Source of the DNA: an uncultured Clostridium sp.
GTDB taxonomy: Bacteria; Bacillota; Clostridia; TANB77; CAG-508
Assembly (NCBI GenBank): GCA_948467495.1
Contig: CAOKEO010000001.1
Span: forward strand, 5,271-69,270
Reading direction: 5' to 3'
DNA: 64,000 bases
Positions 60,143 through 61,885 of the stretch are shown here, one piece after another. The position numbers and the translations under genes are program-made. How positions within the stretch are numbered: position 1 is the stretch's first letter; every line of letters begins with the position of its first letter. The notes beneath the pieces are model-generated. The model made no database searches. It saw nothing but the letters and a program-made list of their open reading frames with translations, and was not told the origin of the DNA.

Positions 60143-61885
60143 ATGGCTGATAATGATTTTAAAGAAAACTTAAAATATTCTAGAACATATAATACTTCTG
60201 AACAACAAGATATGCAAGAAAAATTAATGCATTTAATCGATGAATATCAAAAAAATAATTCTTTTGAAAATAGAGAATTTTTATGCTATTTAACTTCTGC
60301 TATCTTTTTAAGCTATAAAAAATTGTTTCCTCAATTAAATATCTATATTCCATTTAGAACAAAAAGTGATAATAGCTTTATAAAAAACATTCAAAAAGAA
60401 GCTGCTAAATATGCTAAAGATACTGATTCTGATTCCTTTGATATTTTTCCTATTGAAAATGATATTTCTGCCCTTAGAGTTGTTATTGATAATATTAACT
60501 TTACACTTCCCTCTACTCCTGAATCAGAAGCATTATTTAATGATTCAGAAATTCAAGAATTAATAGGAGATAATGAAGGTAATACAAATGAATATTCTAG
60601 GCGCAAAAATTTTGATTTTGTAAATAAAGTAAATGATTTTATTAACTCTCCACTTCAAGACGGAAAGCAATATCTTGAATTAAAGCAAGAATTACTAAAT
60701 AGGATTATTAAAATTACCCCCTCTGAATTCACAGATGAACGAAAACCTAAACCTTCTTTTCGTGAACTATTGAAAAAAATGGAAGAAGATTATGCTTTTT
60801 TCTCGGAAAATGATGACTTTCCTACAGAAATTTCTGCTTCTGAGATAACAGAACTTAAAACTCTATTAAACGACTTTCGTTCTAGAATCGATGATAAACT
60901 ACAATTTGCAATTTTAGAAAAAACCCTACCAATCGTACTAGAACAACCTTTAGTAAAAAACGTATTAAAGACTTCTTCTAAATTTGATAAAGATTCGAAA
61001 AAGGAAAATGGCTTTCACTCAATTTATTATACCATTTCCACTCCTTTTGGACCTGTTGAATTGCAAGCCCAATCTAATAGAGCCTATTATTCTGCTACAA
61101 AAGGTAGTGCTTATCATAGTGGCATGGATGGTAAAACTGTTAATGTTAAAGATTTCTTTGAATTAGTAGACCCAGATGATGAACATGATCTTTCTTACTA
61201 TTTGGATACTCTTGACTCTATTTCAGCTGACAAACTGATTTCCCCTTATGAAATTCCTGAATTTAAAACAGAACAAGAAAAAGAAGATTTCTTAAAAACA
61301 CCTACTGGTATGGCTTATTTAAAATCTGAAAAATATCGAGAAATGATGAAACATATACGAATTAAAGAAAAAATGATGATAATTCCCCAAAGCTTACCGA
61401 AAGAAGTATATATCTCTGATAGCAATATAGATACTGAAAAATTACAAAAATTAATAAAAAGTGGAAAAGTTCTTCAAATGCCTACTATTGTGGATGCAAA
61501 TGAATATCTATTCTCTACTGCCTTATCACTATCACCTTATATGAATGTATGTGCTTCTGGGCAAACTTCCTTTACCAATGCAGGAATTCATCATAAAAAA
61601 GTAGTAGGTGAATTTGCGGAAGCTCTAAGAAAAAGAGATTCCAATACTTGTTTACGAGATATGTTAATTCGTAGATTAGAAGACTTAATTGAGGAACCCG
61701 AAAAATTTGTAAAAAACCCAAAAGCATTAGAGCATATAAATGACTACCTAACAACAATTGTAGACAGACATGCTGAAATGGTAATCAATCTTCCAAAAGA
61801 CATCTCCAAAAAAAATATTATTAAATATGGGGAAAAACTTAGTAATAAAATGAAGTCTAATTCTGATATAGACTTAGTCATATAA
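60143..61885 (+). CDS. Large (580-aa) protein with a RelA/SpoT-like nucleotidyltransferase (synthetase-fold) domain and long uncharacterised extensions.
   Basis: The RSH synthetase signature region reads DIFPIENDISALRVVIDN ... GFHSIYYTISTPFGPVELQAQSNRAYYSATKGSAYHS, which parallels RFDQIFDLIAIRCV ... GYQSIHTTV.GP.GPLEVQIRT..MH..AE.G.AAHW. There is no HD hydrolase domain. Confidence 0.6.
   Translation: MADNDFKENLKYSRTYNTSEQQDMQEKLMHLIDEYQKNNSFENREFLCYLTSAIFLSYKKLFPQLNIYIPFRTKSDNSFIKNIQKEAAKYAKDTDSDSFDIFPIENDISALRVVIDNINFTLPSTPESEALFNDSEIQELIGDNEGNTNEYSRRKNFDFVNKVNDFINSPLQDGKQYLELKQELLNRIIKITPSEFTDERKPKPSFRELLKKMEEDYAFFSENDDFPTEISASEITELKTLLNDFRSRIDDKLQFAILEKTLPIVLEQPLVKNVLKTSSKFDKDSKKENGFHSIYYTISTPFGPVELQAQSNRAYYSATKGSAYHSGMDGKTVNVKDFFELVDPDDEHDLSYYLDTLDSISADKLISPYEIPEFKTEQEKEDFLKTPTGMAYLKSEKYREMMKHIRIKEKMMIIPQSLPKEVYISDSNIDTEKLQKLIKSGKVLQMPTIVDANEYLFSTALSLSPYMNVCASGQTSFTNAGIHHKKVVGEFAEALRKRDSNTCLRDMLIRRLEDLIEEPEKFVKNPKALEHINDYLTTIVDRHAEMVINLPKDISKKNIIKYGEKLSNKMKSNSDIDLVI

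Follow-up and report, generated by a model that had tools for sequence, protein, structure and literature searches.

Positions 60143 to 61885 on the forward strand of the 64,000-nucleotide (nt) stretch of contig CAOKEO010000001.1 analysed here (the window), from an uncultured Clostridium sp., hold an open reading frame (ORF) of 580 codons plus stop, taken from the ORF list; the gene and its protein are both named X in what follows. X was found to belong to a family whose homology to the synthetase (SYNTH) domain of the RelA/SpoT homologues (RSH) is, at the level of the family, established almost beyond doubt. Stress signalling in bacteria centres on RSH enzymes. The interpretation that we favour, and hold with middling confidence, is that X is a vertically inherited and highly divergent RSH synthetase with a split SYNTH domain, a C-terminal domain of about 235 residues, a product of the alarmone type and a housekeeping or regulatory role. 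A preliminary description of the window, made from the sequence alone, had reported this ORF, which was confirmed, and had proposed an RSH-type nucleotidyltransferase; the proposal stands for the family, as judged by profile searches of the PDB, hhalign, PF04607 and invariant residues, and fails in tests made with X as a single sequence.

The homology was recognized from the core of the family. A hidden Markov model (HMM) of this core with the insertion columns removed (A4) was searched against 177,635 distinct PDB sequences and retrieved RelSeq at E = 5.4e-8, Escherichia coli RelA at 2e-7, four other Rel structures at 7e-6 to 5e-5, RelP at 3.7e-5, FaRel2 at 0.024 and RelQ-like proteins at 0.15–0.37. 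The top 14 matches were all RSH synthetases, and CapRel, Tas1 and Apk2 were not retrieved. With the six-frame ORFs of the window as an internal control, A4 returned X at E = 9e-47 and the canonical Rel ORF at 1.2e-7, the next best match having E = 0.04. When a divergent 68-member alignment of the X family, again with the insertion excised, was compared by hhalign with an alignment of Rel synthetases (A3), the two were matched over 119 columns at 97.3% probability (P = 1.9e-11); the halves taken separately were matched at 92.9% (N-terminal half, P = 3.7e-7) and 94.1% (C-terminal half, P = 1.2e-7), in the correct order and register. Excision had been adopted given the weakness of the whole-length comparisons, which is due to the splitting of the domain by the insertion: a whole-length family profile reached only E = 0.0073 against the PDB, with Rel and RelA as its sole matches and K287..H325 as the only aligned block, and whole-length hhalign gave 16% probability with the C-terminal half of the domain alone aligned. 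The Pfam model PF04607 (RelA_SpoT) provided a further line of evidence. Weak matches to it were found in 7 of 44 close relatives (best E = 4.4e-4), and its gathering score of 27 was exceeded by the distant members P0246 (36.2 bits), P0223 (27.6 bits) and P0243 (27.4 bits), which are linked to the X family at E = 1e-9 to 1e-14 by profile search; the match of P0223 falls in two separate stretches, as expected of a split domain.

Structure prediction is consistent with these alignments. The AlphaFold2 (AF2) model of X (pLDDT 86.4, pTM 0.84) has two helices, beta1 (residues 65–73), a helix, beta2 (109–118), helices spanning about 150 residues, beta3 to beta5 (278–311) and a final helix, and the model of P0243 (pLDDT 90, pTM 0.88) has the same topology. 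In both models, this is the topology of the RSH SYNTH domain (beta1-alpha-beta2...beta3-beta4-beta5-alpha) split by an insertion. Foldseek ranked RelSeq first among PDB structures for both models, at E = 0.18 for X and at E = 0.016 (probability 0.66–0.72) for P0243, values that lack significance by themselves.

No substitution of R72, K74, D107 or E306 occurs among 68 relatives with 16–29% identity to X, and conservation reaches 90% or more at S78, Y177, G290, Q308 and H325. The first half of the synthetase core (residues 62–122; 60326..60508), delimited by hhalign and its invariant residues, contains beta1 ending in R72-x-K74, a helix with S78 (syn1, ATP phosphates), and D107 followed by beta2 (syn2, Mg2+). 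In the register of hhalign and hmmsearch, R72, K74 and S78 form the ATP-binding RxKxxxS motif, the wider syn1 pattern (RxKxxxSxxxK) being recovered in X as F-R72-T-K74-SDN-S78-FIK-N82, and D107 is in register with the Mg2+-binding Asp and equivalent to D90 of FaRel2. The second half (residues 276–345; 60968..61177), delimited by motifs and hhalign, contains beta3, the G-loop K287-x-N289-G290-F291-x-S-x-Y295 (syn3) and beta5 with E306-x-Q308-x-Q310-S311 (syn4). Within it, N289-G290-F291 corresponds to the G-loop with its stacking aromatic residue, F291 being equivalent to Y128 of FaRel2, while E306 and Q308 align with the ExQ of EVQIRT and H325 with the His of AAHW. The latter lies in a conserved flexible loop, KGSAYHSG..GK (syn5; H325 and K331). 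Both D90 and Y128 are essential in FaRel2 (bioRxiv 10.1101/2021.04.30.441581). The preliminary description had singled out two signature blocks, ...NDISALRVVIDN... at residues 106–117 and ENGFHSIYYTISTPFGPVELQAQSNRAYYSATKGSAYHSG at residues 288–327; the peptides are present as quoted, but the insertion of about 150 residues (123–275) separating them had been overlooked. That description had also named loss of catalytic residues as the mark of a degenerate domain. No such loss was seen and, the catalytic residues being retained, the domain is therefore not degenerate by that measure.

Based on these residues, X is most likely an active ATP-dependent 3'-pyrophosphokinase, and its retention of catalysis is considered quite probable. 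R72, K74 and S78 would hold the phosphates of ATP, D107, together with E306, would bind Mg2+, and the acceptor base would stack on F291 of the G-loop; E306 would then activate the 3'-OH of the acceptor for attack on the beta-phosphate of ATP, the product presumably being an alarmone-type nucleotide.

The regions outside the catalytic core distinguish X from known members of the superfamily. Residues 1–61 (60143..60325), assigned from the AF2 model and hhalign, comprise a low-confidence tail and the long helices H19–38 and H41–61 preceding beta1, as in the RSH SYNTH domain; hhalign aligned residues ~44–61 with the helix before the GRxK of Rel. Between beta2 and beta3 lies the hallmark of the X family, a helical insertion (residues 123–275; 60509..60967) with about eight helices in the AF2 secondary structure. 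No distant relative lacks it, and the near-invariant Y177 lies within it; its mean pairwise identity is 38%, and that of the catalytic C-half (residues 276–345) is 58%. The C-terminal alpha/beta domain (residues 346–580; 61178..61882), defined from AF2, Foldseek and Pfam, has no match in Pfam, the PDB or BFVD (Foldseek being used for the structures). Its conserved core (residues 451–515; 61493-61687), delimited by pairwise identity, is the most conserved segment of X at 62% mean pairwise identity, and reads SPYMNVCSSGHTSF...GEFAE.LRK.DSNTCLRD; with H474, E490, E493, R496 and D499 near-invariant, it could, on the strength of this conservation, represent a second functional site. The high pTM suggests that all parts of the modelled protein pack into one globule, where forming or controlling the acceptor site would presumably fall to the insertion and the C-terminal domain. 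Pfam detected none of the HD, TGS, AH, RIS/ZFD and ACT domains in X, all of which occur in the canonical Rel ORFs of the window; the lack of an HD hydrolase domain had been correctly noted before.

X had initially been described as an orphan, a view that did not survive the searches for relatives. Apart from the 11 contigs that encode a protein identical to X, relatives form 119 clusters at 90% identity, mostly of 530–600 residues and reaching down to 29% identity, with no Pfam domain or informative name in any cluster; the sole name given by the sources is 'hypothetical protein'. When 1.84 billion representatives at 50% identity were searched exhaustively with a profile, 165 proteins were returned at E <= 1e-3. 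Among these are many 'short forms' of 440–530 residues that match only the first ~350 residues of X and retain a reduced version of the C-terminal domain with ..IP.., ..SP..Y and ..DI..Y elements, as well as forms of 620–785 residues with N-terminal extensions. All 28 of the species-level genome loci come from metagenome-assembled genomes (MAGs) of uncultured Clostridia from the gut of rabbit, chicken, mouse and human. A literature search brought up no account of a clade of this kind. The census of 2020, which recognized 30 subfamilies of small alarmone synthetase (SAS), relied on RSH HMMs (PMC7229694), and HMMs of that type are largely escaped by the X family.

The chromosomal position of X is maintained over great divergence. 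In the window, X lies between a divergent gene for a TrhP-like protein of the U32 family (58773..60005, reverse strand; Pfam Peptidase_U32 and U32_C) and a convergent gene for an O-methyltransferase of the TrmR/YrrM type (61924..62514, reverse strand; Methyltransf_3, PF01596), beyond which follow BipA, an acyltransferase and cmk. TrhP was the best NCBIfam match of the U32 protein (E = 5e-107), below the equivalog cut-off. Homologues at 55, 50, 36 and 29% identity share the order U32(-)/X(+)/Methyltransf_3(-)/BipA(-), which was also found in each of the 28 species-level MAG loci from which flanks were recovered; the U32 gene adjoins X wherever the upstream flank was recovered, and the methyltransferase gene does so in nearly all loci. 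With X divergent from the former and convergent with the latter in all close loci, the earlier account of X as monocistronic, with a U32 peptidase and a methyltransferase as neighbours, was upheld. The sole recurrent same-strand neighbour is a shorter paralogue of X (406–420 residues), found about 20 bp upstream in 10 related loci (L006, at 4760-5980, L016, L026, L028-L033 and L036); the window species has a single copy.

A single operon of Bacillus subtilis serves mo5U34 synthesis and combines trmR (yrrM) with yrrN and yrrO, two genes of the U32 family; X accordingly seems to have been inserted into that cluster long ago. A functional coupling of X to these tRNA-U34 genes was considered and rejected, X being on the opposite strand and its distant relatives being found in unrelated housekeeping contexts: one is flanked on the first side by pth, RNase G and an uncharacterized protein of 621 residues and on the second by aspS, and another lies between rpoBC and gdpP-rplI-dnaB. 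Since the distant members lie elsewhere, the tRNA-modification neighbourhood is regarded as inherited synteny and not as evidence of function. Among the short forms, the 460-residue P0290 (L041/L042, 7001-8383) is encoded directly upstream of gdpP, the gene for the c-di-AMP phosphodiesterase, on the same strand, with rplI and dnaB following. Its cluster representative, P0243, has an N-terminal stretch of 110 residues that passes the Pfam threshold of the archaeal family DUF2226, scoring 25.5 bits where the gathering score is 22.

X has diverged much faster than its neighbours, at about three times their rate. The mean pairwise identity is 44.6% for X compared to 79.2% for the U32 protein and 77.5% for the methyltransferase, and in one pair X is 35% identical where the flank is 86% identical. 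The ratio of nonsynonymous to synonymous substitution rates (dN/dS) is 0.10–0.40 for X, with 0.6 in one deep pair, and 0.04–0.16 for the neighbours. X is thus under purifying selection, less constrained than the genes beside it, and positive selection was rejected because the gene-wide dN/dS is below 1. The GC content of X (0.25–0.30) is slightly lower than that of the flanks (0.31–0.35); given the smallness of this difference and the strict synteny, horizontal transfer or a compositional island was likewise rejected. In these uncultured low-GC gut Clostridia, X behaves as a lineage-specific chromosomal gene of a housekeeping or regulatory kind, and unlike a module of the toxin-antitoxin or mobile defence type.

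A number of observations weigh against X being a functional core-genome synthetase of this superfamily. Scans of the single X sequence with Pfam, NCBIfam, PADLOC and PHROGs gave no significant match, and the HMM search that the preliminary description had put forward as a check gave a divided answer: PF04607 did not match X itself even at E <= 10, while P0246, P0223 and P0243 exceeded its gathering score. RelSeq was found by phmmer of X against the PDB at a non-significant E = 0.14, and no Foldseek match reached E <= 0.001 with the two full models against the PDB or with one against BFVD. Moreover, the boundaries of the excision were picked after the motifs and the model had been seen; the database searches themselves are nevertheless unbiased, and the two halves match independently. 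Three motif positions have changed: syn3 of X reads G-F291-H-S-I-Y295, replacing the His of SxH with Tyr, where distant relatives have A/SxF (GYxxxF); syn4 reads E-L-Q-A-Q310-S, with AQ in place of IR, where distant relatives have LQ (EIQLQT); and the terminal Lys of syn1 is N82 in X and its close family, Lys being found in the short-form relatives. Finally, the dN of X is 4–8 times that of the U32 gene and its dN/dS 2–5 times that of the neighbours, a pace of evolution unusual for a core enzyme.

The changes at syn3 and syn4 bear directly on the identity of the acceptor. The His of SxH has been described as guanosine-recognising (PMC12226406, from which the roles of the motifs were taken), and X does not carry the guanosine-specific signature G(Y)xSxH with E-x-Q-I-R-T. 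Its syn3 and syn4 motifs also differ from the adenosine-type signatures of Apk, GxN and YH (PMC12226406). With guanosine-recognition residues replaced, the acceptor may be something other than GDP or GTP, and the motifs, being of neither the guanosine nor the Apk type, point to no particular acceptor.

That X might instead be a classical (p)ppGpp-specific small alarmone synthetase, the equivalent of RelP or RelQ with extra domains, is a notion that overlaps with our favoured interpretation and that we regard as unlikely, although parts of the evidence speak for it. The closest solved relatives by sequence are Rel, RelA and RelP; the location in the core genome and the surface of X, acidic to judge by composition, are in keeping with such an enzyme; and the paralogue encoded upstream in related genomes, which has all of the catalytic motifs (YRYKSQNS, YDIIGMKIV, KGYTSMHF and SELQ), possesses the more canonical GYxSxH G-loop. 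The state of the canonical rel gene provides a further argument. This gene was listed in the preliminary description as a separate gene at 3657–5853; it is indeed present there, on the reverse strand, but split by a +1 frameshift at about 5127–5133 into a 246-residue ORF with the HD hydrolase (5113–5853) and a 480-residue ORF (3657–5099) with the remainder of SYNTH and the TGS, AH, RIS and ACT domains. The frameshift consists of one extra base (ACA-C-GGT) directly before the ATP-binding motif GRAKHLYSIYRKM, and leaves the 480-residue ORF without the ATP-binding Arg and Lys. Both ORFs were called on 22 contigs from at least six samples, and the split is therefore real and not an assembly error. 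To judge from the sequence, Rel of the window species would probably be active as a synthetase only after a bypass of the frameshift, so that another synthetase could be needed. Set against this are the Tyr or Phe that takes the place of the SxH His throughout the X family, the Gln in place of the syn4 Arg, and a size of 580 residues, with insertion and C-terminal domain, unlike the ~210 residues of RelP and RelQ. In addition, the rel junction is intact in a closely related species (P0308), whose identity over the rel synthetase segment used as query is 91%, and X is far older than the frameshift.

In a more far-reaching interpretation, X and its 165-representative family would make up a previously unrecognised RSH class with an acceptor other than a guanine nucleotide, for which the insertion and the C-terminal domain would build a new substrate site. 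We think this improbable; were it true, the acceptor might for example be another nucleotide, a cofactor or an RNA 3' end, and uncultured gut Firmicutes would have either a signalling nucleotide not seen before or an RNA modification under regulation. X could then be the one RSH synthetase left intact in the window species, given the frameshift ahead of the ATP-binding motif of the canonical rel.

The preliminary description had raised the possibility of a toxic SAS (toxSAS), a fused toxin-antitoxin protein or an anti-phage enzyme. In this form, X would be a self-inhibited effector resembling CapRel that has become fixed in the core genome of the lineage; after a trigger such as phage had acted on a sensor or antitoxin-like domain at the C-terminus, the toxSYNTH domain would pyrophosphorylate tRNA at its 3'-CCA end or make (pp)pApp. 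A long single-chain protein of RSH fold with an extra C-terminal domain, the rapid evolution relative to the flanking genes, the tandem paralogues in 10 related loci, the lost guanosine-specific residues and the tRNA U34-modification genes on either side are all compatible with such an effector. The sole recurrent match of X-family proteins outside RSH, to PF12441, concerns a CopG/BrnA-type antitoxin with an N-terminal IPxF..E..F motif, and would also fit; weak matches to it (best E = 1.6e-3) were obtained at residues 370–419 (window 61250–61399) in 14 of 44 members. All of these are below the gathering score of 28 bits, come from related and hence not independent sequences, and involve only the short IPxF..E..F motif; a fused CopG antitoxin was therefore rejected, and the match is probably due to chance.

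The genetic surroundings speak against a toxSAS. No antitoxin-like or small partner gene adjoins X or its distant relatives in the contexts examined, and the conserved bi- or tricistronic operon with a cognate antitoxin that typifies toxSAS genes (PMC7229694) was found at neither close nor distant loci. X occupies the identical housekeeping slot in every locus with flanks recovered, its distant relatives occupy other housekeeping contexts, and the link to tRNA modification is not conserved. Searches by tblastn of phage records (50,697) and plasmids (72,556), a scan of IMG/VR by pattern and tblastn, and a search of BFVD detected no relatives of X, and PADLOC gave no match. The pseudo-zinc-finger antitoxin-like domain that had been suggested for the C-terminus was not found, the C-terminal domain having no Foldseek match to any PDB chain; CapRel, absent from the match lists, was retrieved neither by sequence nor by fold, and FaRel2 was matched much more weakly than Rel, RelA and RelP. 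The C-terminal core is the most conserved part of X and not a hypervariable sensor, and the gene-wide dN/dS is below 1. Whereas tRNA-targeting toxSASs use strongly basic grooves, the surface of the housekeeping RelQ that is equivalent to the tRNA interface is negatively charged (bioRxiv 10.1101/2021.04.30.441581). By composition alone, X is acidic, with an isoelectric point (pI) of 5.2 for the whole protein, 4.75 for the N-terminal helices and 5.2 for the first half of the core. Taken together, these data make a toxSAS effector distinctly improbable.

Equally hard to sustain is the proposal that X is a catalytically inactive RSH derivative, a nucleotide-binding regulator or structural protein that keeps the fold and some ligand-binding residues, as might be supposed from its fast evolution, the replaced His of syn3, Arg of syn4 and Lys of syn1 (N82), and the low-confidence prediction of the conserved syn5 loop (residues 322–330 in AF2), because the ATP-binding Arg and Lys, the Mg2+ Asp and the catalytic Glu show no change even in relatives of ~17% identity, as is typical of retained catalysis, the Gly of the G-loop and the Gln of ExQ are at least 90% conserved, and the catalytic half is among the most conserved segments.

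With respect to its expression, X is preceded by a candidate sigma-A-type promoter read from the sequence (60081..60114, forward strand), with a -35 element TTGCAT (60081–60086), a spacer of 17 nt and a -10 element TATAAT (60104–60109). An additional TATAAT (60109–60114) overlaps this -10; when the sequences upstream of the gene in 10 species were aligned, it showed no variation, and a TTGnnT -35 was likewise retained. The ribosome-binding site AGGAGG (60131..60136, forward strand), 6 nt before the ATG, is conserved as well. The near-perfect sigma-A promoter previously credited to X belongs to its neighbour: the consensus site TTGACA-17-TATAAT, matching at 12 of 12 positions, is on the reverse strand (60061..60033) and serves the U32 gene, and is kept in related species (ATTGACAA + TATAAT in the upstream alignment). 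The promoter of X fell below the threshold of the promoter scan because its -35 matches the consensus at three of six positions only. Following the stop codon of X is an AT-rich, near-perfect hairpin (61885..61938; dG -22.6 kcal/mol, z -7.67 relative to shuffled sequences), which was missed by the terminator scan because that scan requires at least three G-C pairs. It had been described as a terminator of X's own; the strong hairpin is there, but it is common to the convergent methyltransferase gene on the reverse strand and is probably a bidirectional terminator. No Rfam element (riboswitch, T-box or other RNA) was found near or upstream of X.

Two further features were noted on the far side of the U32 gene. 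Adjacent ORFs in different frames at 57354–57848 and 57862–58248 (forward strand; 164 and 128 residues) both match PF04018 and are VCA0040-like, or PopT polyprenyl-phosphate transporter by NCBIfam. The homologue at L006 is a single 269-residue gene, and the pair looks like a second frameshift-split gene in the window species. Between these ORFs and the U32 gene is a palindrome (58403–58459), both strands of which match an Rfam miRNA model weakly (26 bits, gathering score 62) and which is most likely a terminator hairpin.

The X family adds to the RSH superfamily a further clade that has been missed by Pfam, NCBIfam and PADLOC and that resides in the core genome of abundant uncultured gut Clostridia. 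It is an architectural variant new within this superfamily and not a new kind of system; it broadens the architecture known for RSH proteins and offers a concrete candidate for a new acceptor specificity. Recent work has shown proteins of this fold to be capable, too, of making (pp)pApp or of tRNA pyrophosphorylation. Organisms that carry X may run the chemistry of the stringent response differently; in the window species, the canonical rel is split.

Compared with known systems, X is closest in both sequence and fold to the SYNTH domain of the long Rel/RelA/SpoT enzymes (RelSeq, 1vj7; E. coli RelA, 5iqr), with which it shares the motif order RxKxxxS, D-x4-(R/K), NG(Y/F), ExQ and AxH and the catalytic Arg, Lys, Asp and Glu. 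Unlike these enzymes, X has no HD, TGS, helical, ZFD/RIS or ACT domain, and possesses instead the 150-residue insertion and a C-terminal domain of its own, together with Tyr for His in syn3, Gln for Arg in syn4 and Asn for Lys in syn1. With RelP and RelQ (6fgk, 3l9d, 2be3), X has in common a stand-alone chromosomal gene, no hydrolase, no antitoxin and, to judge by composition, an acidic surface; those proteins, however, are single domains of ~210–250 residues with the canonical guanosine signature, whereas X has 580 residues and is rapidly diverging. The toxSAS and CapRel proteins (FaRel2, 8pu4; PhRel2; CapRel-SJ46; Tas1; Apk2) resemble X in their RSH fold and divergent acceptor site, the essential D90 and Y128 of FaRel2 having their equivalents in D107 and F291, and CapRel is likewise a single chain with an extra C-terminal domain. 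X differs from this group in having no antitoxin or immunity gene and in not being carried on mobile elements or in phages, and from its tRNA-targeting members in that no basic tRNA groove is evident from its composition.

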